This document shows positions 6,244 to 64,000 of a stretch of DNA of 64,000 nt, piece after piece. The stretch is from Escherichia coli. Lineage in GTDB: Bacteria > Pseudomonadota > Gammaproteobacteria > Enterobacterales > Enterobacteriaceae. The position numbers and the translations under genes were made by a program. Each line of letters opens with the position of its first letter. Position 1 is the stretch's first letter. The stretch lies in NCBI RefSeq assembly GCF_024502345.1, contig NZ_JALDNN010000001.1; one strand, 5' to 3'. The notes below the pieces were generated by a model. The model saw nothing but the letters and a program-made list of their open reading frames with translations. It did no database searches and was not told where the DNA came from.

Positions 6244-8685
6244 TCACTCTGCCACTTTTTTCTTCGCCGCACGCTTCGCTTTGGTCGCTGCGGCTATTTT
6301 CTGCGTTTTCGCCGATGGCTTTTTCGCTTTTCTCGCGTCTTTCTTCGCTGCTTTCGGCTTCGTTTTTTTCTCACCGCGGAAGGCGCTGTCTGGCTCAAAG
6401 TTTACCTTTTTACCGACCTGACGACGCTTGCCGCTTTTTTTGCCTGCATCGCCTTTTTTCGCTTTCTCGCGCGCCGTTTTACCGACGTTGCGCGGTGCGC
6501 GTTCGCTGGAGATCAGGCTAAAGTCGATTTTGCGCTCGTCCATATTAACCGCTTCGACGCGAACTTCCACGCGATCGCCCAGACGATAAGTCTGGCCGCT
6601 GGATTCACCCATCAGCCGTTGCCCTACCTGGTCAAAGCGATAGTAGTCATTGTCCAGCGAAGAGACATGGACCAGACCATCAATGAATAAGTCGTCCAGA
6701 CGGACAAAGAATCCAAAGCCAGTGACGCTGGAAATTACGCCTTTAAAGACGTTACCTACCTGGTCGAGCATGAAGTCACACTTCAGCCAGTCAGCCACAT
6801 CGCGCGTTGCTTCGTCGGCACGACGTTCCGCCATCGAACAGTGCTGACCCAGTTGCAGCATTTCTTCCATCGAATAATGGTAGCCGCCGGTTTCAGTGGT
6901 GTTGCCCTGATGCCCCTGCTCTTTCGCCAGCAGATATTTAATGGCGCGGTGCAGCGTCAGGTCTGGATAACGACGAATCGGCGAAGTAAAGTGCGCATAG
7001 GACTGCAATGCCAGGCCAAAGTGACCACGGTTTTCTGGATCGTAAATCGCCTGTTTCATCGAGCGCAGCAGCATGGTTTGCAGCATTTCTGCATCAGGAC
7101 GATCGGCAACCGACTCCAGCAGCTCCGCGTAGTCACGCGGTTCCGGCTTGTTACCGCCCGGCAGTTCCAGCCCCAGCTCCGCCAGTACTGAACGGAAAGA
7201 GGTAATCGCTTCGGTGCTCGGCTTGTCGTGAATACGGAACAATGCTGGTTCTTTGGCTTTCTCAACGAAACGCGCCGCCGAGATATTCGCCAGAATCATG
7301 CACTCTTCAATTAACTTGTGTGCGTCGTTACGCTGAGTCTGTTCGATACGCTCAATACGGCGTTCAGCGTTGAAAATAAACTTCGCTTCTTCGCTCTCAA
7401 ATGAGATCCCGCCACGTTCTTCACGGGCTTTATCCAGCACTTTATAGAGGTTATGCAACTCTTCGAGATGCTTAACCAGCGGAGCGTACTGCTCGCGCAG
7501 ATCCTGATCGCCCTGCAGAATATGCCAGACTTTGGTGTAGGTCAGACGCGCGTGAGAGCTCATCACCGCTTCGTAGAATTTGTAGCCCGTCAGGCGGCCT
7601 TTCGACGAAACCGTCATCTCGCACACCATACACAGGCGGTCTACCTGCGGATTGAGCGAGCACAGACCGTTAGAGAGCACTTCCGGCAGCATCGGGATAA
7701 CCTGCGAAGGGAAGTACACCGACGTACCACGATTACGCGCTTCTCTATCCAGCGGCGTTGGCGGACGCACATAGTAGCTGACGTCGGCAATCGCGACCCA
7801 TAAACGCCAGCCGCCGCCGCGTTTTTTCTCGCAGTAAACCGCATCGTCAAAGTCACGGGCGTCTTCGCCATCAATGGTGACCAGCGGTAAATCGCGCAAA
7901 TCGACACGGCCCGCTTTTGCTTCTTCCGGCACTTCTTCTTTCAGCCCGGCAACCTGTTGCTCAACAGCCTGCGGCCAGATGTACGGAATTTCATGGGTAC
8001 GCAGAGCGATATCAACCGCCATGCCGGTGCCCATATTGTCGCCCAGCACTTCGACGATTTTACCCACCGCTTTGGTACGGCGAGTCGGGCGTTGGGTCAG
8101 TTCAACAACCACCACAAAGCCCATCCGCGCGCCCATGATCTGATCGGGCGGGATTAAGATATCGAAGCTCAGACGGCTATCGTCAGGAACCACAAAGCCG
8201 ACGCCCGCTTCGGTAAAGTAGCGACCAACAATCTGGCTGGTTTTTGGCACCAGTACGCGGACAATACGCGCTTCACGACGACCTTTACGGTCAGCACCCA
8301 GCGGCTGAGCCAGCACCTGATCGCCATGAATGCAGGTTTTCATCTGCTCGCTGGAGAGATACAAATCATCTTTACGCCCTTCAACCCGCAGAAAGCCGTA
8401 GCCATCACGGTGGCCAATAACGGTACCTTTCACCAGGTCGAGGCGTTCCGGCAGCGCATAGCACTGACGACGAGTGAAGACCAGTTGACCATCGCGCTCC
8501 ATCGCGCGCAGGCGGCGACGCAGGCCTTCAAGCTGCTCTTCGCCTTCAATGTGCAGTTCTACCGCCAGCTCATCACGGCTGGCCGGTTTTTCACGTTTGG
8601 TTAAATGTTCGAGGATAAATTCCCGACTAGGGATGGGATTCGCGTATTTTTCAGCTTCGCGTTCCTGGAAAGGATCTTGTGACAT
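6244..8685 (-). CDS. rnr: Ribonuclease R
   Basis: ORF 6244..8727; start set at [23 protein letters not shown] (813 aa); S1 domain and Lys-rich C-terminal tail. Confidence 0.9.
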
Positions 8686-9353: not shown

Positions 9354-10655
<1,302 letters not shown>

Positions 10656-16088: not shown

Positions 16089-17928
16089 CTTTCAGGGCTT
16101 TTATCGCCGGATGTAAATCAACAGATTGTAACAGACCACCCGGCGGCGTTTTCACAAGTTGCGGACATAACCGTTCCACGTCCGCCAGCAGGGTTATGGC
16201 CTGTGCCATTGACCACTGCGCATGTTCGCTCATCAGATTTCGTGCAATCCACTGCGCAATATTGCCAGGTTCGAATACGGACTGCTTCGCCAGGTAGCCT
16301 ATCAGTTCAGGAATCAAGATTTGTAAATTTTGTTGGCGTAAGGGTAAAGGCACGGCCCTGATGGTCACATGCTGTGCATCTGACTGGAAATCAATACCCA
16401 ATTCCGCCAGGGCAGACTGCGCTTTTTCTAATGCCGATTTTTCTTCGCCAGAAACTTTTAGCCGCAACGGAATCAGCAGCGGCTGGGCGCAAACGGGCGC
16501 TTCACCCGGCGTCAGTTGTACCTGACGCAGCCAACGTTCTGCCACTGGCAAGGCTAAAAGTGAAATGTTGCCGTCGCGCTCCAGCAACGCACAGTCGGAA
16601 TGGACGATAGTCAGTACCCGACCAAAACTCTGACTGTTCGCCGCAAGTGCAGGTTCCTGCGGTTCCGGCGCTTTTGGTTTTTGCATCGGCGCGGGCGTTT
16701 GCAAAAGCTGGCGATACACTTCACCTTGCTGTTTCTGGTAGCCTGGCTGCGCATTCGGCCAGGGGGCAGCCGGACGACTGCCTGAGGCGGGCGCAGGAGA
16801 GTAGCGCGGAGCTACCGGCTCACGAGCTGCCGGTTCTGCAAAGTGATTGCGCCCCGCCGCCACGCGGTTTTCCGGAATGGGACGCGGTGCAGGTTGGGGT
16901 TCATCGTCCAGCGGTAGCGGCGTTTCCAGTTGCTGTTGTAGCACGCTCAGCACGCCCTGATAGATAAAATCATGCACCAGACGCGACTGATGGAAACGCA
17001 CTTCGTGTTTGGCGGGGTGTACGTTGACGTCCACCTGATGCGGGTCGATCTCCAGATACAACACAAATGCAGGTTGTTGATCGGCCCCCAGTTTGTCTTC
17101 GCAGGCCTGGCGGATCGCGTGATTGATCAGGCGATCGCGCATCATGCGACCGTTCACGTAGCAATACTGAATTTCTGCCAGTGCGGGCGTGGTGTGATTT
17201 GGATCGGCCACCCAGCCGCGCAGGGTGAGATCGCCGTGTTGCCATTCAATCGCCAGCGCTTGTTCGAGAAAAGCGGTGCCACAAATCGCGCCTAAGCGCC
17301 GTTCTTTTTGCCCGCCTTCCGGCACTGCGCGGTACTGACGCACAATTTTACCGTTATGCGACAGGTTGATCGTGACGTCGAAACGCGCCAGCGCAATGCG
17401 GCGGATGATTTCATCGATATGGTTAAATTCGGTTTTCTCGGTGCGCAGGAATCTGCGCCGCGCCGGGGTGTTGTAGAACAGATCCAGCACCTCCAGCGTC
17501 GTTCCCACCGGATGCGCCGCCGGTTTAACCGTCACGTCCATATCGCGTCCTTCGGCATAGGCCTGCCAGGCTTCCTGCTGTTCTGCGGTGCGTGAAGTGA
17601 GCGTCAGGCGGGAAACCGAACTGATACTCGCCAGCGCCTCACCGCGAAAGCCCAGGCTGATAATGGCTTCGAGATCGTCCAGAGAGGCGATTTTACTGGT
17701 GGCATGACGAGCCAGCGCCAGCGCCAGCTCATCTTTTTTGATACCGCAGCCGTTATCACGAATGCGGATAAGTTTCGCCCCACCGCGTTCGATATCAATA
17801 TCGATACGCGTCGCACCTGCATCGAGGCTGTTTTCCACCAGTTCTTTGACTACCGACGCAGGTCGCTCGACCACCTCACCTGCGGCAATCTGGTTCGCCA
17901 GTTGTGGCGGTAAGACCTGAATTGGCAT
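16081..17928 (-). CDS. mutL: DNA mismatch repair protein MutL
   Basis: ORF 16081..17931; start at [23 protein letters not shown] (615 aa); 3' end overlaps miaA start by 8 nt. Confidence 0.9.
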
Positions 17929-52144: not shown

Positions 52145-52220
52145 GCCCGGATAGCTCAGTCGGTAGAGCAGGGGATTGAAAATCCCCGTGTCCTTGGTTC
52201 GATTCCGAGTCCGGGCACCA
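52145..52220 (+). tRNA. pheU: tRNA-Phe (GAA)
   Basis: GCCCGGATAGCTCAGTCGGTAGAGCAGGGGATTGAAAATCCCCGTGTCCTTGGTTCGATTCCGAGTCCGGGCACCA, 76 nt with GAA anticodon. Confidence 0.95.
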
Positions 52221-53071
52221 ATATTCATAAGGCCTCGCTGCAAAGCGGGGCTTTTTCCTTTTCTGGCTACGGTAGATTTCTGGTCGTTGCGGCACGTTAT
52301 TTGTTTGCTGGATTTCTCGCCATTTTCGCAGTTGTTCGTTACTTTTAGACACCTCAACATCCTTTGATGTACCTTTTCCTAACCTCACAGCTACGGTCTT
52401 TCTACGGTCCTCTACGATTCCTTTCTCTCAGAGCATTCATAATAAAGTAGAAAATACGGGGAAAACGGGGGAATTATCATTTCGCCCTAATCCGCAGGTC
52501 TTAACGTGATTTTGTCGCGGGGAATAAGGTGGGGAAATCCCCAATAGCAAGCGGGGAAATCTGGCAGCATACCCCCTCCACCATTCACATGGGGATCTTC
52601 ACCAGTCCGTCCACCTACAACAAGCTCTTCTTGCCCTTTCACTTCTTACCGTTTTCAGAATCCCCCGTTCTCCACGCCATCATAAAATGATTTATCCGTA
52701 AGCTTAACGTAATGGACTGTTGAACCTGAGTGTCCGCTGTGAGCGAAAAGCGGAACTTCTCACATAGGTAATGAAGCGTTTCCTAACGTCAGGGTGTACT
52801 AATCAACGAAGAGCAGGTCAGAGGACTCGAACCGCTTTCCTCTTCCATCTACGTAGAATTCCAAGAATTTATGTGCTTTCCAGTTACAATTTAGCCATGC
52901 TAAGTTAGAAAAAGCATTGAGTACCTTAGGATTGTATCGATGATACTCTAAGGATCTTGGAGGCTTGTGAGGCGTAAGGTTCAAAGCCAATAGTTTATTA
53001 ATAGTCACACAAGTGGCTCTATTTTTCGCCTACAAACCTATATTTTTCATACAAATAAAAGAAGTGTATTT

Positions 53072-54490
53072 ATGAATACTCAGCAAATTAAGGTTGGCAG
53101 TGTACCTGAAATTATTGAGCTATTACCAAACTCTAGCGAGCAGGCTGATTCTCATCCTTTCATCCTATCGGCAAACAGTGCATGGGGTGAACAGGGAGCA
53201 GAAATATCAATAGAGAGATTACGCCAAAATATCGAGCCTTGGCTAACAGCTCTCTTCCAATCCGAACATTTAAATTTATTGATAGGTGCGGGTTTAAGCA
53301 CGTCTATTCAAATATCGGCTACAGATTCACCTCCAGCTGGAATGGGTTGGATCAGCGATCTAGCCGTATGTAAAAGTGAAATAGATGCATTTTCTACTCT
53401 GGCTGCCAAAGCTGCAGGTCGCGATAACGGAAATATAGAAGATCAAATTAGAGCTATTAATGAACTTATTAAAGGGCTTGAAATTCTGACAGTGTTGAAT
53501 ACCCCTCAACCTGAAAATCCTCCAGCTCCTCATGCTGCTTATAGAAATCTAAAAACGGATTTAGAAATACTCAAGGGAGAGCTTTCTCGCTGCCTAGGTG
53601 AGTTTTCAAGATCTGTGAGTGCCGGAGAATACTTGATTAAAACTGCTGAACCAAAGCGTAAAGAGGAAACTTTCAACTATCTAGTTAGTTTCTTGATGAG
53701 CTTTGCAAGTAGGACCGCTACTCGCGATAGGTTGCATATTTTTACAACAAACTATGATCGCATTATTGAAGTAGGTGCTGAGCTTGCTGGTTTGAGACTT
53801 ATAGATCGCTTTGTAGGAAGTATCGCTCCAGTGTTTCGATCTTCAAGATTGGAGGTTGATTATCACTATAATCCTCCAGGAATTCGTGGCGAACCAAGAT
53901 ATTTAGAAGGCGTAGCGCGTTTTACTAAGCTTCATGGATCCCTTGATTGGCATGAACAAAATAGCGCGATTAGGCGCTTTGGTTTACCTTTTGGAGCACG
54001 TTCTGTTGAACCTTTTTTAGAAGCTGAAGGCCATCAAAGCAACAGCTTTGAACAACTTATGATTTACCCTAACTCAGTAAAAGATAGAGAAACTGCCGAG
54101 TACCCTTATGTTGAGCTATTTCGAGATCTAGCCGCAGCAACTAGCCGCCCAAATAGCACATTAGTCACCTATGGCTATAGCTTTGGTGATGAGCATATCA
54201 ACAGGGTAATTGAAGACATGCTTACAGTGCCTTCGACTCATGTAGTCATAATTGCCTTCGGAGATCCGCTTGGAAGAATCATAAATTTCATTAATAAGAG
54301 TGGAAGAAAAGCACAGATCACCCTATTAATGGGAGACCATTTAGGAGACCTCAAGACTTTAGTTGATAACTATTTACCTAAACCAGCTATTGATAAAGCA
54401 TCAATAAAAATGACTGAATTGCTTAAGCAAAGAGGATTTATCCAGCCCAAAGAATTAGGTAATTCAACTGGCTCCGAGGTATCACAATGA
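53072..54490 (+). CDS. SIR2-like NAD-binding protein (candidate NADase effector of a SIR2-HerA defence pair)
   Basis: 472-aa ORF with Rossmann GAGxS (LLIGAGLSTS), a sirtuin TQNID-like motif (FTTNYDRIIE) and a catalytic-His motif (FTKLHGSLDWHE); AT-rich. Confidence 0.7.
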   Translation: MNTQQIKVGSVPEIIELLPNSSEQADSHPFILSANSAWGEQGAEISIERLRQNIEPWLTALFQSEHLNLLIGAGLSTSIQISATDSPPAGMGWISDLAVCKSEIDAFSTLAAKAAGRDNGNIEDQIRAINELIKGLEILTVLNTPQPENPPAPHAAYRNLKTDLEILKGELSRCLGEFSRSVSAGEYLIKTAEPKRKEETFNYLVSFLMSFASRTATRDRLHIFTTNYDRIIEVGAELAGLRLIDRFVGSIAPVFRSSRLEVDYHYNPPGIRGEPRYLEGVARFTKLHGSLDWHEQNSAIRRFGLPFGARSVEPFLEAEGHQSNSFEQLMIYPNSVKDRETAEYPYVELFRDLAAATSRPNSTLVTYGYSFGDEHINRVIEDMLTVPSTHVVIIAFGDPLGRIINFINKSGRKAQITLLMGDHLGDLKTLVDNYLPKPAIDKASIKMTELLKQRGFIQPKELGNSTGSEVSQ

Positions 54491-56520
54491 GTTACTTACC
54501 AATAGAAAGATTAGAACAATTAAGAATTGGATCTGTTGGATTTGTATCACCTAATGAAATTAGAGTTTCTTTAGAGATTGACTCCCCTGATTCAGTGTCA
54601 CTTCAAGGCGGTTCCCCCCGCAATTTTCCTCGAATAAATAGTTATGTACTGATCAGTAGCGATGATGGATTTCTCGTCGGACAGGTTGAATGGATTGCCG
54701 TAGAACACTCTCCATACCCCAAAAGAAGAGGCTTACAAGATTTTGGCTTGATAGATCTTCCTTTTCCACTTAAAAAGCTCAGTATCAATCCCGTTGGTAC
54801 TTTGAGAGTCGATAGAAAAAACGAAGATTACAAGTTCACAAGAGGAACAGATGCTTTTCCCTCGGTTGGTGACTCCGTGCTCCTGCCTACTGACCGGCAA
54901 TTAAAATCAATAATAGAATCAGGTGACAATAGAAGAGTAAAAATAGGGGACAGCCCCCTAGCTAACAATGCGGAAATAAAAGTGGACCCTGATAGGCTTT
55001 TTGGACGACATTTAGCTGTTTTGGGCAATACAGGTAGTGGTAAATCATGCTCGGTTGCGGGGTTAATTCAATGGTCTTTAGATGCTGTTTTACAACAGGG
55101 ACAGATTCCAAATGCTCGGTTCATAATACTTGATCCAAATGGAGAATACAGTAGGGCATTCGGCCCAGAATCAAAATACAAGGGTAAGCTATTACGTGTA
55201 GAAGCTAACACTGGTGCTGAAGAGATAGATCTTAAAGTTCCGTCATGGTTATGGAATAGCTCTGAGTGGGGTGCTTTCACTCAAGCGAGTTCAAAAGTTC
55301 AACTTCCTTTACTACGCCGAGCTTTGAGGGCGATGAGAAATGATGTTTTATCAGAAGATGATGTGACAATCCAAGCGAAACACTTCTGCGGTATCCTACT
55401 CGTATCCATACGACAATTATCAAGCCAAGGCCAGATATATGTGAATGGCGGCCATGCCAAAGGTTTCGTTGATAGTTTAACGTCTTGGAATAATAGCCTG
55501 TCCACATTAAACGACAAAATCGATAACAAACCTTTCGATAATCTAATAAACACGATGAATGTGTATCTTTCCTCTCGTATAGGAATAAAATGGCCTGAAA
55601 AACCTGAAGTTTCAGATACTGATCAGTTGATTAATGAATTAAAAAATGCATATGAAACGCTTGGAGGTGATGAACAAGGACTTCTTCCAAAAAGTGAAGA
55701 TTCGCCTATTCGTTTTAAAGGGGATGATTTTGTCGCATACCTAGAAGCTCTAGCTCAAGAGACAGGCACAGAGCAATTCGTTGAATTCCTTTTGACTCGT
55801 ATTCGAACAATGCTAGGTGACACCCGTATAAGTGCAGTAACAAATGATTCGGAACAGCCTATCAGTTTAACTAATTGGTTAGACACTTTTCTCGGTAGAG
55901 ATGGACAAGGTTCCATAACTGTTATCGATTTATCGCTAGTCCCTAATGAAATAATACATTTGGTAACTGCTGTAATTTCCAGAGTAACTTTTGAAGCATT
56001 ACAACGTTATCGAAGACTTAAGGGGAAACCACTACCAACAGTTATGGTTGCAGAAGAAGCGCATACATTTATTAAACGCTACAAAGAAGATAGTGAGGGT
56101 CAGTCAGTCTCTGACGTATGCTGCAAAGTGTTTGAAAAGATCGCACGTGAAGGCAGGAAATTTGGGTTAGGTCTTGTAGTTTCTTCCCAACGACCCTCAG
56201 AGCTATCTCCGACTGTGTTATCTCAATGTAATACTTTTTTGTTGCACAGGATTAGTAATGATAGAGATCAAGAGCAAGTCCATAGACTTGTTCCCGATAA
56301 CATGAGGGGGTTGTTGAGGGAGTTGCCATCGCTACCATCTCGGCATGCCATTCTACTAGGATGGGCTTCTGAACTTCCGGTTTTAGTTAGAATGAAAGAG
56401 CTTACTGAAAAACAAAGACCACAATCTGACGATCCCGATTTTTGGGATGTGTGGTCTAACACTACAGAAGAGCCTCGCGAAGTTAATTGGCAACCAATAG
56501 CTGATGATTGGCAAAGTTAA
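54487..56520 (+). CDS. HerA/FtsK-like P-loop ATPase (candidate partner of the SIR2-like protein)
   Basis: 677-aa ORF; Walker A LAVLGNTGSGKS, Walker B VMVAEEAHTF, downstream VVSSQRPSEL motif; ATG overlaps the upstream stop (ATGA), consistent with translational coupling. Confidence 0.75.
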   Translation: MSYLPIERLEQLRIGSVGFVSPNEIRVSLEIDSPDSVSLQGGSPRNFPRINSYVLISSDDGFLVGQVEWIAVEHSPYPKRRGLQDFGLIDLPFPLKKLSINPVGTLRVDRKNEDYKFTRGTDAFPSVGDSVLLPTDRQLKSIIESGDNRRVKIGDSPLANNAEIKVDPDRLFGRHLAVLGNTGSGKSCSVAGLIQWSLDAVLQQGQIPNARFIILDPNGEYSRAFGPESKYKGKLLRVEANTGAEEIDLKVPSWLWNSSEWGAFTQASSKVQLPLLRRALRAMRNDVLSEDDVTIQAKHFCGILLVSIRQLSSQGQIYVNGGHAKGFVDSLTSWNNSLSTLNDKIDNKPFDNLINTMNVYLSSRIGIKWPEKPEVSDTDQLINELKNAYETLGGDEQGLLPKSEDSPIRFKGDDFVAYLEALAQETGTEQFVEFLLTRIRTMLGDTRISAVTNDSEQPISLTNWLDTFLGRDGQGSITVIDLSLVPNEIIHLVTAVISRVTFEALQRYRRLKGKPLPTVMVAEEAHTFIKRYKEDSEGQSVSDVCCKVFEKIAREGRKFGLGLVVSSQRPSELSPTVLSQCNTFLLHRISNDRDQEQVHRLVPDNMRGLLRELPSLPSRHAILLGWASELPVLVRMKELTEKQRPQSDDPDFWDVWSNTTEEPREVNWQPIADDWQS

Positions 56521-56941
56521 TTAACTTAACTAATTTTTAGTAGTGTTATAAGTAGTGGCTTATATCTGACATGACAGTTTAGGTTAGTAGTTTCAATCTA
56601 ACAGTAAGTGTCCACGGTGACGTTTTCATACTCAAATCTCCTGAAATGTGGGAGATTTGAGTATGGTTGTCCCTTATGAGCGAGGAGCGGAAGTTCTGCT
56701 TTAAGTGTATCAAACCCTCCAGCAAAGATGTTCTTGAATGTAATGCCATAATTTCCCTAACATTCCAGCACAAATCAATTAACTCTCAGTCCATAGTGTA
56801 TTTTACTTAAATTAAAATCAAATACTCTAGGAATTAAAATAACAAGATCACTTGCGATTATGCTATTTTAAATTAATATTTTTGTTTTTACTGGGGAACC
56901 TTCAAAACACGGAGCCAGATTTCTTCGTAGCTACCCTGTTG

Positions 56942-57766
56942 CTAGGGTTTCAAGTATTCCCCTAAAGGAAAGAAATTTTTTGACAACTTTTGGGATTCAG
57001 CAATTTTAACCAAATAAATATAGAATCCCAACAGAGCACTGTTCTCGCTTTCCCCCCTCGAATAGTGAACATGCCCAGGCACCTTCCGGATGAGGAAACC
57101 ATTATTTTTTACCAAATAATACCCTCTATCTAAAATTGTAATTACATCAGGCATATCATCTAAATCGATATTATTTCCAGTCATGTAATTAAACAGCGAA
57201 TCTCGTAAGGTACTTTCCTCTGGACCTTGGAAGGCTAGTAGTAAGAATGGTGTTTTTCTCAAGGTTGCACACATCCCTGAGATTTCCTCTACTAATTGCA
57301 CTGTATTTTGGGGAATATTTTCTTTCATAAAATAACCATCGTCAATACCGATTGGATTGATTCTTACCAAACCTTTTGACCTAACGCAAGCATCTAAGGT
57401 TGTCTTAAGGTTTGAAGCTCCTTCGGTCATTGAGCCAGTGTTTAATGAAGATTTACATTCAATTAACGCTAAAGCTGAATCGACAGGGACCATACACTGA
57501 TCTTTATCATAACTAAGTTTTAAAGAATGTTTCGAGTATATGATAATATCCATCTGACTTGAGAGATTATCCTTAGAGTCAAAAACCTGTCCTGATGTAA
57601 TATCTAAATTACTAGGGAGATTTGCTTTTAAAAATTCCCTTATTACAATTTCTCTAGCACTTCCTTTGCTACTCCCGTTCGTCGTTATGGATGACAAATT
57701 AAATGCTGAAACCAAAGATGCCGTATGGTTTTTTAAGTGTTTCTGGATTAATTTCATAAAGCTCAT
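56942..57766 (-). CDS. Hypothetical protein, possible PD-(D/E)xK-type nuclease
   Basis: 274-aa AT-rich ORF convergent with the SIR2/HerA operon; contains D...ExK-like residues (QMDIIIY ... ALIECK); start codon uncertain. Confidence 0.4.
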   Translation of the reverse strand: MSFMKLIQKHLKNHTASLVSAFNLSSITTNGSSKGSAREIVIREFLKANLPSNLDITSGQVFDSKDNLSSQMDIIIYSKHSLKLSYDKDQCMVPVDSALALIECKSSLNTGSMTEGASNLKTTLDACVRSKGLVRINPIGIDDGYFMKENIPQNTVQLVEEISGMCATLRKTPFLLLAFQGPEESTLRDSLFNYMTGNNIDLDDMPDVITILDRGYYLVKNNGFLIRKVPGHVHYSRGESENSALLGFYIYLVKIAESQKLSKNFFPLGEYLKP

Positions 57767-58194
57767 TCCATTTTAATTTATCTACATCGCTTAAAGGCAA
57801 ATGATGCCACCGGCTACCAATTAAAAATTATCTCAACCTGAGAGATTTTTCCAGACTCCAAACGAAAATAAAAAACTACTCGTCACGTCCCTCCTGGCAC
57901 ATAGCCGACACCAAAACCAGCAACATATGGACAACGGTCCCTGCCCTGATGGCAGGTAATTGTATCAGACTTAAACACATATTATTTCTGTGAACTCCCC
58001 CCAACGGCAGTCCTTTCCTCTGAAGACCAGAACCAGACCGTAAAGCCTGCTCTTTCTGCATTTCCCGTATTAATTCATACCATGTGGCACCAGCATTCCC
58101 TTCGCCACACCAGAAAATCAATTCCCCAATAAAAAAGTGCCGTGCCGGGGATGGGTCAACCCTGACGTTCTTTACACCAGTCACAGGAGGTTAT

Positions 58195-59379
58195 ATGTCC
58201 ACCCCCAAACGCTTCCGTTTTACTAATCAGCTCATTAAATCCCTGCCCCCTAACACATCCGATGCACGCAGTACCGATGCCGAATACAGCGACACCGAGA
58301 TTTCCGGCCTCAAGTGTCTGGTCAGCAGAAGAGAAGGTCGTAAAAAGTTTTTGCTACGCTACCTTTATCATGGACGAAAACGCGCCATCGCCATTGGTCA
58401 CTGGCCTGAAGTGGACGTCAATCTTGCTCGTCAGATTGCCATAGAACACAAACGTTCCCTTGCCACCGGCACTGACCCTAAGCAGGAGCGTGAAAACAAG
58501 AGAATGGAGCTGACGTTCGATGAACTCTTTAATCAGCATTATCTGCCATGGGCAAAATCCGCTAAACGCAGTTGGGGAAAGGATGTTCAGCGCTACCGCG
58601 ATCATATCCGTCCCGCCATTGGTCAGAGGCTGCTGAGCGATATCACACCAGCGAGCATTCTGCGCCTTCAGCAGACGTTAAGTACTTCCCTGTCAGCAGC
58701 TACCTGTAACCGTGTCATCGTACTCATTAAAGCCGTCTTTACATGGGCCGGAAGGCAAAGCATGACCTCTGTCCATCCGGCAAGGGTGGTACAGCTTCTC
58801 AGGGAGAACAACGCCCGACAGCGCTATTTCACCGAGGACGAAATTCGTCGTATTTTTCTCTCCGCCGATAACGATACCAGCCCCGTCGCGGCCCGCTATG
58901 TCAAACTGTTGTTACTGACCGGCCTTCGTCGTGATGAGCTGCGTCTGGCTAAGTGGGAGCATGTTGACCCGGTTAAACGCACCCTGTGGCTCCCGGAAAC
59001 CAAGAATGGCTATGGGCGGATTGTTCACCTTAACTCACTGGCGATGGACGTAATCAGAACGCTGCCAACGCAGCGGGGAAATCCGTGGTTGTTTATCGGT
59101 AAAAAACAAGGAATGCCGCTGAATAACCCCGTTAAAGCCTTTCAGCGTATCGTTCGTCGGGCGGGAATTTTCGACCAGGAAGTGTGTATTCATACCTGCC
59201 GCCATTCGGTTGCCGCCCTCATCGTGTCCTACGGCGGAACACTGTATGACGTTCAGGCTCAACTGGGGCACCGCAGCAGTCAGTCTTCACAACGTTATGC
59301 GCATCTTCACCCTCAGCGCTTACAAAACACCAGTCAGTTACTGGCGGAAAGGATAACGGCTCAGCTACCGTCCTTGTGA
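58195..59379 (+). CDS. Tyrosine recombinase / phage-type (P4-like) integrase
   Basis: ATG at 58195 preceded by AGGAGG; 394 aa; C-terminal catalytic R..HxxR..Y signature (HTCRHSVAALIVSYGG ... LGHRSSQSSQRYAHL). Confidence 0.85.
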   Translation: MSTPKRFRFTNQLIKSLPPNTSDARSTDAEYSDTEISGLKCLVSRREGRKKFLLRYLYHGRKRAIAIGHWPEVDVNLARQIAIEHKRSLATGTDPKQERENKRMELTFDELFNQHYLPWAKSAKRSWGKDVQRYRDHIRPAIGQRLLSDITPASILRLQQTLSTSLSAATCNRVIVLIKAVFTWAGRQSMTSVHPARVVQLLRENNARQRYFTEDEIRRIFLSADNDTSPVAARYVKLLLLTGLRRDELRLAKWEHVDPVKRTLWLPETKNGYGRIVHLNSLAMDVIRTLPTQRGNPWLFIGKKQGMPLNNPVKAFQRIVRRAGIFDQEVCIHTCRHSVAALIVSYGGTLYDVQAQLGHRSSQSSQRYAHLHPQRLQNTSQLLAERITAQLPSL

Positions 59380-59434: not shown

Positions 59435-59791
59435 TCAGAACGGGATGGCCCCATATTCTTCATCCGGCACCCGGTTATCATCAAATCTGTTATAGAGTTC
59501 ACGAGCACACTCGCGCGCGTCTTTAATAGACATACGAGGGAACCTGCCGAGGGGTTCATAATAGCAGGCCCCTTCAAGCGTATAACGAGCCAGGAATTTA
59601 ATCTCACCGTTGGCAATGACGGCCCGGAGCGCAGGCTCGCTGCCATCGAAGATTTCACGAGAAATGCCGTGATAAAGGCACTCCGCCAGTGTGTTAACCA
59701 GAGCGTAATCATTGAATGAGGTTTTTTCTTCATTTTCGCTGCTGATAGCGTGAGGAAAACCGTCATAGTACTGGTCTGATTCAAAAATCAT
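59435..59791 (-). CDS. Hypothetical protein
   Basis: 118-aa ORF downstream of the replication-like gene; no recognisable motif. Confidence 0.35.
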   Translation of the reverse strand: MIFESDQYYDGFPHAISSENEEKTSFNDYALVNTLAECLYHGISREIFDGSEPALRAVIANGEIKFLARYTLEGACYYEPLGRFPRMSIKDARECARELYNRFDDNRVPDEEYGAIPF

Positions 59792-59840
59792 ACATCACCT
59801 TCTATTGGTTGTTATTCAGTCAAAATGGTTTTATTCAGGG

Positions 59841-61769
59841 TTAAAATTCGGTCATCACATTGCATTTCAGAAACGCTTTTTTGACCTGGTAGTAAGACTG
59901 CGCCATCGTCTTCAGCGCTCTTTTTTTATAGTGTCCGGCACTTTCGCCAAGCAGATAACCGGAACGCTCTAACGGTCTGGCCACATCAACGGTCTTAAGT
60001 CCCTTTTCAGAACAGAGCTTTTCAAACACCGATTCATAAATCAGGAAGTCGCCGGTTTTGTAATGGACGAATCCCCACATATCTCCCGGGCATCGGGCAT
60101 GTTCGTCACGCAGGGTGATAAAGTGCCTGCTGCTTTTTGTCACCAGCGTCAGCTGAAGCTCCTCCAGCATGTTACGCACCGGGTTATACTGATTCTGGTT
60201 ATCATCCAGCCAGCGTCGTGCAGCGGACATAACGGATTCAGCCACCGCATCGCTTTCGAAAGGTAAAAGGCCATATTTCAGCGCCTTCTCTCCTGCCAGC
60301 CATACCAGCGCAAATCTTTTCAGTCCGCGCCGCTGAACGCGGGTAATATCACGCCCCTCATCCCTCAGGGCCTCTTCCAGTGCGTTACAGCAATCATCTG
60401 TCTGTTCCTGGAGCCAGGATGAAAACTCTGCGTAGGTGCGAAGACCGCCAGCCGTATTTTTCCCGGATAACAGTTTGCCGATAAATGCAGGCCCGGCATG
60501 ACCATAAGCCTCTGCCAGCCCCGTCTTCAGTGCATCTGCACGGGCACGTGTTTCTGATACCGGTTCATCCGGTTTTTGAGCATCCTCAGGCAACAGTTCC
60601 ATACTGATGGCCCTGTGCTCCTGCCCTCCCTGTAACACGGCTTTCTGTTCAGCCAGCTTTTCGGAGATTGACATCTCACCGGTGGAGAGAATAAACATGC
60701 GCCATTTAAACGGCTCATCTGCCGTCAGGCCACGGTTCAGGCGCTCTTTTGCCGTACCTGACGTAATGTTGTAAAGCAGTGAGGAAAGTTGCTTATGATT
60801 ACTCGCACCCAGTTCATCGACGCAGGCGACCAGACCGGAATAGTCAGCGAGAAGGCGCTCCATCGCGTTAGGCGTGGTATTCCAGCGAATAATATTTACA
60901 TTCCCCCCACTACCCGGCTCGCTGCCATCACCATGGACCGATGCAGCCAGCATCAGGAGAAGCGTTTTACCGGTGGTGGATACGCCGTGAAAATGAAACA
61001 TGCCCACATCCATACCGGCAGGAACCAGAAGCATCGAAGCAAAGGACGCACTCAGTGCAAAGGTCTGCGCCCAGCCATGGACATTTTCCCGGATGAGGTT
61101 AATCCACTCCTCCAGGGCCCCACCTTTGTGCAGTCCGGGACGCACGCGGAATCCCGGCAGTAGATAATCAAACCCGGTCAGAGAGGTCACAACGGGCTCA
61201 TGACCATGTAAAAAGGCCATATCCTCCGAAACGAATCCCATCGCATCTGCCATCAGATAGACAGGCAGCGGTAAACTCCGGCAGCGCTGAAGAAAACGGT
61301 CAAAAAGGGCAAACTGCTGTGGAGAGGAGCCAACACAAAATCCACGATCTGCCAGTTTGCCTACTACCTGAGCACCGCTCTGAACAATATCCTCAAAGCG
61401 TACCAGGGCCTTAACATACTTACCCAGCCCGTTACCGGTCATCAGGCTGATCCCAAGACCGGACTCCTTATCTTTTCCACAAAACAGGGCGACAGGCACA
61501 ACTGGCGTGGTGCAAACCTGCACAGGTTTCTGTCCACCGATGTAGAAAAGGCCATTAGCCGTATTCACATAATGCCGTGGCAGCCCATCACCAATACCGA
61601 GTGAAGCGATATCATCTTCACCGACCTCAGTGTTTTCAGCACGCCTGATAATTGCTTCCGACATTTTGTTGAAATTTTTATCGCGGTCAGCAAAAGCGCG
61701 AATACGCTTAATCCCGGAAACCTTAGGAACATTAGTTGTCACTTTTTTATTCATGTGTATTACCATCAA
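59841..61769 (-). CDS. P-loop NTPase, putative primase/helicase-like replication protein of an integrative element
   Basis: 642-aa ORF with Walker A (HGVSTTGKTLL) and a DE box (VACVDELG); immediately downstream of an integrase; start codon uncertain. Confidence 0.5.
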   Translation of the reverse strand: MMVIHMNKKVTTNVPKVSGIKRIRAFADRDKNFNKMSEAIIRRAENTEVGEDDIASLGIGDGLPRHYVNTANGLFYIGGQKPVQVCTTPVVPVALFCGKDKESGLGISLMTGNGLGKYVKALVRFEDIVQSGAQVVGKLADRGFCVGSSPQQFALFDRFLQRCRSLPLPVYLMADAMGFVSEDMAFLHGHEPVVTSLTGFDYLLPGFRVRPGLHKGGALEEWINLIRENVHGWAQTFALSASFASMLLVPAGMDVGMFHFHGVSTTGKTLLLMLAASVHGDGSEPGSGGNVNIIRWNTTPNAMERLLADYSGLVACVDELGASNHKQLSSLLYNITSGTAKERLNRGLTADEPFKWRMFILSTGEMSISEKLAEQKAVLQGGQEHRAISMELLPEDAQKPDEPVSETRARADALKTGLAEAYGHAGPAFIGKLLSGKNTAGGLRTYAEFSSWLQEQTDDCCNALEEALRDEGRDITRVQRRGLKRFALVWLAGEKALKYGLLPFESDAVAESVMSAARRWLDDNQNQYNPVRNMLEELQLTLVTKSSRHFITLRDEHARCPGDMWGFVHYKTGDFLIYESVFEKLCSEKGLKTVDVARPLERSGYLLGESAGHYKKRALKTMAQSYYQVKKAFLKCNVMTEF

Positions 61770-61838
61770 ATTACGCCACCGTCAGAAAACGGGTGCATCA
61801 GAACCATAGTTAAAAACCATACCGTTGAGTGAAGGTTG

Positions 61839-63251
61839 TTACCCCATCGCCCGGTTAACGACTTCGTGGTAACGCGCCGGGGAAGCGTGCAAGTAAAGCT
61901 CCGTTACTTTGATAGTGCTGTGACCCAATAAGTCTTTGACGGTGTGAATGTCGGCCCCGCTCTCAATGAGCTTTGTCGCAAAGGTATGACGCATCTCATG
62001 GATGGTGAACGGTGGAATACCCGCAGCCTCACAAAGTCGTTTTTGCAGGCGACGCGGCTCAGCAACCGGATTGTCGGTTCCCTTGCCCGGAAATACCCAG
62101 CCTTCATCACCCAGATGCTGACGCTGTTCTGTCAGAAGAACGAAAGCCTTATCACATACCGGTACACGGCGTAGTTTGCCGTTTTTGGTATGGCGAAGGG
62201 TGATAACCTTGCGGCTCCAGTCCACATCTTCAAGACGAAGGTGACGGGTTTCCCCCAGACGCAGCCCCGTCAGGGCAAGGAACATGAGAAGAGCAAGGGC
62301 TTCATGATCGGGTTTACCATTACGCCAGCGCTCACAGACGTCCATCCAGCGCTGAAGCTGGGAGTCATCCATGGCACGGCGATCTGACGTCACTTCAGGC
62401 AGCGCTTTGATATAAAGCGCCGGAGAGCGGCTGATGTATCCCATGCGTATAGCCCAGGTAAACACCGCTTTAATGAGCGCCAGATGGCGGTTGCGGGTGG
62501 CAGGCTTGAGATCGAGATTATGCAGATAGCTCAGAATATCTGCCTCCGTCATACCTGCCAGCTTTTTGTCACCGAGAAGAGGGCGCAGGTATTTACGGAT
62601 CTTAGAAAGGTCGGTGTTAGCTGAACGCTTAACGCCCGTGCTGAGTACGCTTTTCTCATACTCATCCACAAGCTCATTAAACGTCATTTTACTGTGAGTA
62701 AGAAAACGCTCACCGTAAGCCTCAACGGCGGTCTTGAGCTCCTGAATTATTTTAAAGGCATGCTCCCTTGCATCTTTAATTGAAATTTCCGGGTAGCCTC
62801 CTACGGCAACGTAGATATTCTTTCCGCGAATACTTTTGCGGACAATAAATTTAATGCGACCTGATGGATAGAATATTGCCTTAAGTCCGGTTAACTTCTT
62901 ATCGCTGGTCTCGATTGTTTGTGCAGCTTGTACTGCACGGATTTTATATTCATCAAAAAGGGCTTTAGTAAAAACACCTCCAGTATTTTTAGGTGCAACC
63001 CCTGGATATTCTACAACATCAGATACTCCAGAGTCGGAATACCCCTGAGCTTCCACATCTACATTGAAGGAATTTTTATGAGCAGCTGTGATGCTCTTTT
63101 CATCCAGCACTTGCGTTATTTTATTTAAAGGGTAATTAACTTTCATAATATGTACATGGTCCTCTGAAAATTCAGATGATAATGAGTAATTTAATATGTC
63201 GGCCAACAATGGGATAAGCTTATTTATTCGTGGCATCACTTTCAAGCCCAT
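61839..63251 (-). CDS. Tyrosine recombinase / integrase (second copy, distinct sequence)
   Basis: 470-aa ORF; catalytic signature RLGETRHL ... HEMRHTFATKLIESG ... LGHSTIKVTELYLH. Confidence 0.8.
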   Translation of the reverse strand: MGLKVMPRINKLIPLLADILNYSLSSEFSEDHVHIMKVNYPLNKITQVLDEKSITAAHKNSFNVDVEAQGYSDSGVSDVVEYPGVAPKNTGGVFTKALFDEYKIRAVQAAQTIETSDKKLTGLKAIFYPSGRIKFIVRKSIRGKNIYVAVGGYPEISIKDAREHAFKIIQELKTAVEAYGERFLTHSKMTFNELVDEYEKSVLSTGVKRSANTDLSKIRKYLRPLLGDKKLAGMTEADILSYLHNLDLKPATRNRHLALIKAVFTWAIRMGYISRSPALYIKALPEVTSDRRAMDDSQLQRWMDVCERWRNGKPDHEALALLMFLALTGLRLGETRHLRLEDVDWSRKVITLRHTKNGKLRRVPVCDKAFVLLTEQRQHLGDEGWVFPGKGTDNPVAEPRRLQKRLCEAAGIPPFTIHEMRHTFATKLIESGADIHTVKDLLGHSTIKVTELYLHASPARYHEVVNRAMG

Positions 63252-63479
63252 GAAAAATCAGCTCTTACATGCCCATTGACATTTAATACTCAAGTCAGAA
63301 AGACCATGATGATTCATCAGGAGTACTCCTGCTCAGGGAAAAGGGAAAATAGCGTTAAACCCTATAAAAAAATTGTGTTCCGGATGCATCGCCCAAAGTA
63401 AGTCAACTTTTGAGGCCCTGAAGGGCTTTGTTGAATAAATCAGATTTCGGGTAAGTCTCCCCCGTAGCGGGTTGTGTTT

Positions 63480-63884
63480 TCAGGCAATACGCACGCTTTC
63501 AGGCATACCTGCTTTCGTCATTTTGTTCAGCGCTCGTACCAGGGCCATAGCCTCCGCAACCTGACCATCGTAGTCACGCAGCGTCAGTGAACCCCCGAAC
63601 AGCTGTTTTACCCGGTACATCGCCGTTTCCGCTATCGAGCGACGGTTGTAATCTGTTGTCCATTTCCACCGCGCATTACGCTGATTAGCCACTGCACGGT
63701 TACGGTCTGCATATTCACCGGGCCAGTAACCCGCACCTTTTCGGGGAGGGATAAGCGCGCTGATTTTCTTACGCCGCAGTTCATCGTGACAGAGCCGGGT
63801 GTCGTAAGCGCCGTCTGCCGATGCTGCCCTGATTTTTCTGTGAGTCTGCCGGATAAGACCCGGGAAGGCTTCTGAGTCCGTCAC
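63480..63884 (-). mobile_element. IS5-family DDE transposase, C-terminal fragment (truncated or frameshifted)
   Basis: 134-aa ORF with DGAYDT and RSIAETAMYRVKQLFG (IS5-type D..E region); reading frame breaks upstream. Confidence 0.55.
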
Positions 63885-64000
63885 ATTGTTCAGCGACAGG
63901 TCAGCGCAGATGATTTCATGTGTTTTACTGTCAACGGCGAGATGCAGCTTACGCCAGATACGGCGGCGTTCCTGGCCATGCTTTTTGACTTTCCACTCGC

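Follow-up and report, generated by a model that had tools for sequence, protein, structure and literature searches.

A conserved array of G-run sites between tRNA-Phe and a P4-like integrase gene in enterobacterial genomic islands

Repeated sites are a familiar feature of attachment arms. In the attP arm of phage lambda, the arm-type sites of Int are combined with a filament of Xis on the sites X1-X1.5-X2, which occupy ~40 bp between the arm sites and the core, and phages P2 and 186 use direct-repeat arrays for Cox and Apl, respectively. The integron site attI1 contains the accessory direct repeats DR1 and DR2, which are core-like extra integrase sites. In KplE1 (CPS-53), attL contains arm-type sites of IntS and five sites of TorI (RDF) that overlap the intS promoter, all between the tRNA gene and intS (PMC2951348), and both TorI and IntS repress intS (PMC2951348). 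The classical GI-pheV/intP4 islands of Escherichia coli have repeats of 19-23 bp at the tRNA 3' end and an integrase gene directly beside the tRNA (PMC11537424).

Here we describe an array of short G-run sites that lies between a tRNA-Phe gene and the gene of a P4-like tyrosine integrase (IntP) in a 64-kb stretch of Escherichia coli DNA, hereafter called the window. The literature that we searched contains no description of the G-run motif, of the array geometry or of a built-in slot for defence cargo. The best explanation we can offer, judged from sequence, is that the sites form an accessory protein-binding array in an attL/attP-integrase control region, comparable to the TorI sites of KplE1, and we give this reading a roughly even chance of being right.

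G-run sites downstream of tRNA-Phe

Downstream of tRNA-Phe, the window contains ~850 bp without a gene, followed by a SIR2-HerA operon (Table 1). An earlier note on this DNA had reported five closely spaced GGGGAA-type copies in this interval, one of them palindromic. All five are found in place on the plus strand (52458-52558, within 108 bp), and the palindrome of site 4 is confirmed. Across the window, GGGGAA occurs 18 times on the plus strand and 16 times on the minus strand (34 on both strands). Five or more copies within 110 bp were never obtained when the intergenic region was dinucleotide-shuffled 5,000 times, nor in 5,000 shuffles of the 108-bp stretch or 200 of the complete window, which rules out chance or base composition as the source of the cluster. 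The stricter form YGGGGAAW is not enriched across the window (11 found vs 8 expected), so the signal is one of local clustering.

Three elements were absent from the earlier note: a sixth direct copy, an inverted double copy, and a CTACGGT/CTACGAT repeat family nearer the tRNA. With the consensus YGGGGRA, the array consists of six direct sites and the inverted double site, and its span is ~220 bp. In site 4 the outer GGGG/CCCC is retained and the centre is variable (AAAT, GCCT, GACT, GCTC, AGCC). The inverted double site is perfect as ACGGGGRAAACGGGG in four other loci (L007, L036, L039, and L029). At the position equivalent to the C-rich boxes, Edwardsiella has CTCCGGTGCCACTCCGGTCC. By simple arithmetic on the offsets of the GGGGA cores (0, 10, 61, 73, and 95), four of the five fall within 0.5 bp of a 10.5-bp phase. 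The G-runs are thus several short repeats of the same orientation, helically phased, in one arm only, as looked for in an array of the RDF type.

We note that a 12-mer comprising site 5 with its flanks, AGCGGGGAAATC, occurs once more in the window, at 59072-59083, in the coding part of the IntP gene. For any one site, such an identical 12-mer would arise by chance in the window with a probability of ~0.01, and the gene that hosts this copy is 99% conserved.

Table 1 Features of the tRNA-Phe to integrase region (positions in the window unless a locus is named).
Feature	Position	Strand	Remark
tRNA-Phe (GAA), pheU locus, island attL	52145..52220	+	ARAGORN, Rfam; dsbD-dicD flank as at pheU
Block common to attL and attR, anticodon stem (GGGATTGAAAATCCCC...) to CCA end	52172..52220	+	
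Island-borne intrinsic terminator for the rebuilt tRNA gene	52229..52258	+	terminator scan; kept in all lineages
Candidate arm-type pair CTACGGTAG-N4-CTGGTCG	52267..52286	+	invariant in 18 sequences; +49/+60 in five lineages
Candidate arm-type sites CTACGGT/CTACGGT/CTACGAT	52391..52418	+	spacing 11, 10 bp
G-run sites 1+2, double site CGGGGAAAACGGGGGAATT	52457..52475	+	same offset across lineages
G-run site 1, aCGGGGAAAAc	52457-52465	+	
G-run site 2, CGGGGGAATT	52466-52475	+	
G-run site 3, CGGGGAAT	52518-52525	+	51-53 bp past site 2 in five lineages
G-run site 4, 12-bp dyad GGGG-N4-CCCC inside palindrome TGGGGAAATCCCCA	52530-52543	none	always 12 bp past site 3
G-run site 5, CGGGGAAAT	52552..52560	+	22-23 bp past site 4 in five lineages
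C-rich boxes CCCCCTCCACC, TTCACC, GTCCACC	52568..52618	+	invariant CACC/CCAC columns in alignment
G-run site 6, TGGGGAT	52590-52596	+	~+371; kept in E. coli, Enterobacter, Citrobacter lineages
Inverted double G-run site ATCCCCCGTTCTCCACG (reverse complement CGTGGAGAACGGGGGAT)	52660-52676	-	inverted repeat I1 with sites 1-2
Junction palindrome GTCCGCTGTGAGCGAAAAGCGGAA	52732..52755	none	near module end, just before cargo slot
Cargo module 1, SIR2-HerA defence operon	53072..56520	+	Pfam; PADLOC SIR2 2.7e-154, HerA 2e-252
Second, degenerate junction element	56663..56697	none	between cargo modules
Cargo module 2, NucC-like PD-(D/E)xK nuclease (DUF6602)	56942..57766	-	
Conserved region upstream of IntP	57935..58194	+	alignment of 11 loci
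ACACATATTATTTCTGTG box within IntP-upstream region	57975-57993		
Inverted arm-type site GACCGTA	58036-58042		
IntP, P4-like tyrosine integrase with Arm-DNA-bind_3 domain	58195..59379	+	Pfam
Nested block: Arm-DBD protein, DUF927 (Cch-like) helicase, second integrase	59435..63251	-	Pfam
GTCCGCTGTGAGCGANNAGCGGAC element elsewhere	L003 ~9592-9627; L006 ~16710-16744; L005 16345-16359; L010 3462, 5444		
GTCCGCTGTGAGCGANNAGCGGAC element elsewhere	L040 ~7001-7040; L041 ~7001-7038		

Conservation of the module, its geometry and its neighbours

The array is part of a non-coding module of ~600 bp that follows tRNA-Phe (pheU or pheV) in 221 of 5,426 complete E. coli genomes, with 75-95% identity. The module recurs in eight further genera of the Enterobacterales (Erwinia, Shimwellia, Enterobacter, Citrobacter, Buttiauxella, Kluyvera, Pseudocitrobacter, and Morganella), whose copies were retrieved with an invariant 19-mer from the tRNA-proximal part of the module; truncated copies were found at contig ends in Silvania and Mixta. 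The patchy occurrence of the module, its identity range and its presence at either tRNA gene rule out native pheU-cadC intergenic DNA, and indels of 7-8 nt between close relatives rule out coding sequence. No similarity to the module was found in phage and plasmid collections, and a plasmid or phage origin was rejected on this ground.

Conservation within the module is concentrated on the sites. Between +236 and +400, in four to five lineages that are ~63-69% identical overall, 21 of 30 columns in the G-run cores are invariant, compared with 34 of 135 flanking columns (Fisher p = 7e-6). In most E. coli-type lineages the G-runs are found at +238, +247, +299, +311, +333, and +371 after the tRNA end, within 2 nt, and in one lineage (L017) they are displaced by 11 nt by an upstream deletion. 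The start-to-start spacings of 8-9, 51-53, 12, and 22-23 bp are constant across five lineages from four genera, namely E. coli (two lineages), Edwardsiella (IntP 82% identical), Tatumella (70%), and Rosenbergiella (70%), the distant islands having been located through IntP homologues. The spacers between the sites are at the shuffled level (identity 0.44-0.62 vs 0.52-0.56 when shuffled), and for the distant islands compared with E. coli the values are 0.44-0.56 vs 0.49-0.53. The inverted double site lies 136-177 bp past site 3 in the compared lineages. In a Yersinia lineage with a more distant IntP (63%), G-run sites also stand in arrays, with a period of 10-11 bp. Core conservation and fixed spacing over randomised spacers lend good support to the proposal in the earlier note that these are iterated binding sites, and spacing that is conserved within 1 bp points to a DNA-protein complex. 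The same contrast between spacing and spacers makes the choice of mutations obvious.

Tandem duplication was seen in two lineages. In Rosenbergiella (L029, 3170-3400 and 3620-3900) and in Yersinia (L030, 2550-2665 and 3120-3250), blocks of G-runs and C-runs are tandemly duplicated, and each copy closes with an inverted double site, which suggests repeated accretion or exchange events at that point.

A decayed module without an adjacent integrase is present in E. coli O103:H2 12009 (L004, 7970-8520). It follows a partial tRNA-Phe repeat at the junction of a CP4-like island and the EspK/LEE region, and copies of this type are found at 80-90% identity in ~100 genomes. In this remnant, 8 of 36 core positions are mutated, compared with 17 of 148 flanking positions, a contrast from one lineage that is not significant alone. 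In an intact and more divergent island (L007), 2 of 36 core positions and 62 of 148 flanking positions are changed. For this single lineage, the comparison suggests that the constraint on the G-runs may be lost without the integrase.

The genes beyond the module vary. A cargo slot is inserted at about +478 to +600 after the tRNA, and between module and IntP it may contain, in place of the modules of the window, an ABC-three-component system, a dCTP deaminase, GmrSD, or a restriction enzyme with DUF2971 or with ADH/LysR. No cargo occupies the slot in E. coli 0H26, Edwardsiella, and Tatumella, and in a cargo-less island (L007) the non-coding module runs directly into the conserved region upstream of IntP. 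The cargo genes adjoining the array are found in either orientation, and many of them point towards the tRNA. In Yersinia, the G-run arrays are on the integrase side of the GmrSD cargo, apart from the tRNA-proximal arm repeats. On the loci compared, the interval from the tRNA arm to the integrase (52221-58194) is a hotspot for anti-phage cargo. No direct repeats above shuffle level flank the cargo, so an att-like duplication around it was rejected, and an 11-bp inverted repeat at 52785/58159 was dismissed as expected by chance at that length.

Of the encoded proteins, IntP alone is linked to the array throughout, and it is 83-99% identical in every array-bearing locus whose sequence covers the integrase region. 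Identities across islands are 38-98% for the DUF927, Arm-DBD, and second integrase proteins (44-98% for the DUF927 helicase and second integrase). The block that encodes these three proteins starts just after the IntP stop codon, and comparisons that also included L033 show it to be absent from a Yersinia-type island that is otherwise 99.5% identical (L035) and from the Tatumella island (L039), which has a full array. It resembles a small element, integrative and possibly replicative, that has become nested within the island. Since the module is constant together with one integrase while the cargo varies, we take the module to be the integrase-side arm of the attachment region.

Two E. coli strains, cS33a and fM51a, match the non-coding module at 100%. 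In cS33a, IS903B stands in place of the NucC-like gene of the window, and ISEc52 is inside the second integrase. An IS903-type end (GGCTTTGTTGAATAAATCAG...) is present upstream of the second integrase in the window itself (63423-64000).

Attachment arms and candidate binding proteins

In strain AW1.7 the whole island measures 23 kb and closes with a near-perfect tRNA repeat of ~49 bp (one base deleted), and the ~49-bp repeat is found at the far island end in three other strains as well. The identity between attL and attR starts at the anticodon stem of tRNA-Phe (GGGGA at 52171-52175, TCCCC at 52183-52187). From this end of identity, we infer that crossover takes place in the anticodon loop.

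Besides the G-runs, the arms contain a second repeat family, represented in the window by CTACGGT at 52267, 52391, and 52402 and by CTACGAT at 52412. In locus L009, CTACGGT has four copies in the first 360 bp and none in the remainder of 26 kb. The shared motif is (C/T)GGT(A/C), which forms a pair at +49/+60 and two or three copies from +171 to +194, 10-11 bp apart, invariant in all lineages. Inverted copies lie ~150-190 bp upstream of the IntP ATG, one of them invariant at ~150 bp, so that these arm-type candidates stand on both sides of the G-run array. The attR arm opens, in four strains, with an invariant pair ATGGTAG-N4-(C/A)TGGTAG at the start of 140 conserved bp, and no G-runs were found in this 140-bp arm of the four strains. 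The presence of (C/T)GGT(A/C) in both arms and of G-runs in only one indicates two classes of sites, with the G-runs as the second, one-armed class.

More distant homologues of IntP agree with this division. Two of them, 47% (at tRNA-Leu(UAA)) and 59% (in Aeromonas) identical, keep TCCGGTC/ACGGT repeats, and the G-run array, which is present down to 63-70% identity, was not found with either. The array is therefore not essential to the integrase family as a whole. The earlier note had suggested recombinase arm sites as one role of the G-runs. Its link to a recombination module holds, as one integrase co-occurs with the array, but the classical arm-type candidates are the (C/T)GGT(A/C) repeats, and it is these rather than the G-runs that are probably the canonical arm-type sites.

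As a conserved and precisely spaced set of sites in the arm that joins tRNA-Phe to the integrase, the array most likely belongs to the integration/excision machinery of the island. In the model we propose, IntP would recombine at the anticodon loop of tRNA-Phe, using the (C/T)GGT(A/C) arm-type repeats that flank the array and recur in the other island arm, and a second recombination or regulatory protein would bind the G-run array. The likeliest candidate for this second protein is a small RDF-like HTH protein of the island backbone, the alternative being IntP itself. HTH_DeoR-like proteins of 52-79 aa are encoded in the island backbones of E. coli, Yersinia, and Edwardsiella; they do not belong to a recognised RDF family, and we regard them as candidate binders. 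The 79-aa member is WP_000113424.1. Binding may shape the attL/attP nucleoprotein complex and/or repress int, like the five TorI sites in attL of KplE1, and so would affect excision or int expression.

Several aspects of the geometry speak against this model. The array begins ~280 bp from the predicted crossover, beyond the distances of classical attP arms, and it is distal to the arm-type sites, not between arm sites and core as the Xis sites of lambda are. In E. coli islands the cargo slot parts the array from the int promoter by 3-7 kb, and in Yersinia it parts the array from the tRNA-proximal arm sites. As cargo can lie on either side of the array, neither partner need adjoin it, and a position-independent cis site would suit the data equally.

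The G-runs also share their GGGGA core with the anticodon stem of tRNA-Phe, which is the predicted core half-site. With a matrix of the G-run sites, the tRNA half-site ranks 27th of 127,978 positions. However, the shared part is only 5-6 nt long, the dyad spacing is 4 in site 4 and 7 in the tRNA stem, and with the tRNA-Leu homologue no array of the corresponding stem motif is seen (three AGGGA/TCCCT copies by manual count vs ~1.3 expected). Mimicry of the anticodon stem GGGGA/TCCCC by the G-runs is thus a weak lead.

Further likenesses to tRNA-Phe were noticed in the arms. In the tRNA-Leu island arm (L032, 3010-3040), ACGGTAGAGCAGGGATACCAAAAAT closely resembles the segment TCGGTAGAGCAGGGGATTGAAAAT from the D-stem to the anticodon arm of tRNA-Phe, and the arm-type motif CGGTAGA equals tRNA-Phe D-arm sequence. 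These likenesses could be coincidence or a trace of the origin of the arm.

Alternative readings and relation to known systems

The array might instead be purely an operator or enhancer of the integrase gene, bound by a regulator of the island or the host and without a role in the recombination complex. In cargo-less islands it ends 140-280 bp upstream of the IntP ATG, the direct array of the Yersinia lineage is ~190-300 bp upstream of int, and tRNA-linked integrase genes are commonly autoregulated through attL sites (PMC2951348). However, most E. coli islands have 3-7 kb of cargo between the array and the int promoter region and still conserve the array, and no sigma-70-like promoter was found in or beside it. 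We consider this reading unlikely.

Another reading concerns the cargo. The array and the junction palindrome could form a docking or recombination platform for the capture and exchange of defence cassettes, in the manner of an integron. Variable cargo starts 40-150 bp past the inverted double site, and G-run blocks are duplicated in Rosenbergiella and Yersinia, as described above. In addition, an imperfect palindrome of ~24 bp, GTCCGCTGTGAGCGANNAGCGGAC, recurs between cargo modules in constant orientation, and in two islands (L003 and L006) an identity of at least 97% extends from the tRNA to this junction element and drops to random level directly beyond it. On the other hand, the junction coincides with the palindrome and not with G-run sites, the cargo has no flanking direct repeats, the cargo of Yersinia lies on the opposite side of the array, and homologous recombination between conserved flanks accounts for cargo swaps without a dedicated site. 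Unrelated E. coli islands also carry the GTCCGCTGTGAGCGANNAGCGGAC element between genes, in 84 genomes. We give the platform little probability; if it were real, it would be a purpose-built integron-like system for defence genes with a P4-type integrase.

Equally improbable in our view is a signal at the level of RNA or transcription, either a bidirectional insulator with C-rich Rho-loading boxes on either strand, shielding the tRNA gene and the arm, or a structured non-coding RNA. An insulator can be considered because the flanking half of the region is extremely C-rich: from +339 to +468 the C/G ratio rises to as much as 5.0 and so exceeds the window's 99.9th percentile. The minus-strand transcript of the G-run half would be C-rich as well (G/C 1.8), and many cargo genes are aimed at the tRNA. 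Rho loading, however, needs neither spacing exact within 1 bp nor a conserved DNA dyad, and no promoter for such a transcript was found. A structured RNA was rejected, as Rfam matches only the tRNA, folding energies of single sequences are ordinary (z = 0.31 and -1.09), and Alifold finds almost no compensatory changes.

Iteron arrays are the rule in SaPI-type origins, and the sites might accordingly be iterons of a replication origin used after excision by the DUF927 (Cch/SaPI-Rep-like) helicase, since the island encodes such a protein with a weak Cch-type HTH match (Pfam). This reading is highly improbable. It is largely refuted by the Tatumella island, which has a complete array and no DUF927 gene, and by the absence of co-variation: the C-terminal region of DUF927, where the HTH is located, has 0-7% invariant positions among the proteins that accompany an unchanged array, and the DUF927 type (44-98% identity) does not follow the lineage of the non-coding module. 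The DUF927 block is, moreover, an insertion, absent from an otherwise 99.5% identical island. A P2/P4 cos-like site, with which the region presumably shares GCGGGGAAA, was set aside, as the island is without P4-like genes.

The role of regulator sites for the adjacent SIR2-HerA operon, also put forward in the earlier note, would fit the position of the array, which shares the strand of SIR2 and precedes its start codon by 510-615 bp, but this role is contradicted and hardly credible, as the same array stands beside ABC-three-component, restriction enzyme, dCTP deaminase, and GmrSD genes in either orientation, beside no cargo at all, or on the other side of the cargo in Yersinia, and cargo-specific sequence starts only past ~+600.

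Under the reading that we prefer, that of an accessory array in the attachment and integrase control region, this island family would place anti-phage systems in a slot inside its own control region. Knowing the functional sequences of the region would help in predicting the remaining ability of such islands to excise and spread. Such knowledge would also show which integrase acts and would supply a sequence signature by which the slot could be recognised in other genomes. Should a specific protein bind the array, the region would be among the few tRNA-island attachment regions with a defined architecture outside lambda, P2/P4, and KplE1.

Compared with the classical GI-pheV islands, the present family likewise combines a P4-type tyrosine integrase, integration at tRNA-Phe, and modular cargo, but its repeat is ~49 bp long and begins at the anticodon stem, and it has a structured leader of ~600 bp. 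As in attI1, there are extra copies of a short motif that resembles a core half-site (GGGGA, the tRNA-Phe anticodon stem). Unlike attI1, the likeness covers 5-6 nt only, the dyad spacing is 4 rather than 7, and the tRNA-Leu homologue is without an equivalent array; IntP has a separate arm-binding domain, and IntI is without one. With lambda, P2, and 186 the locus shares helically phased direct repeats in one arm and a second motif class, putatively that of the integrase N-domain, in both arms. Unlike the Xis sites of lambda, the array extends over ~220 bp, one of its sites is a dyad, its terminal pair is inverted, and its G-rich motif is unrelated.

Compared with KplE1, the interval, which measures 620-760 bp without cargo, is 3-4 times longer, the array lies distal to the arm sites and is closed by an inverted double copy, and a slot for defence cargo is built into the interval. 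As in KplE1, a non-coding interval leads from a tRNA gene to an integrase gene on the same strand and contains two classes of short repeats, one of them in about five copies, and the integrase has an N-terminal arm-binding domain.
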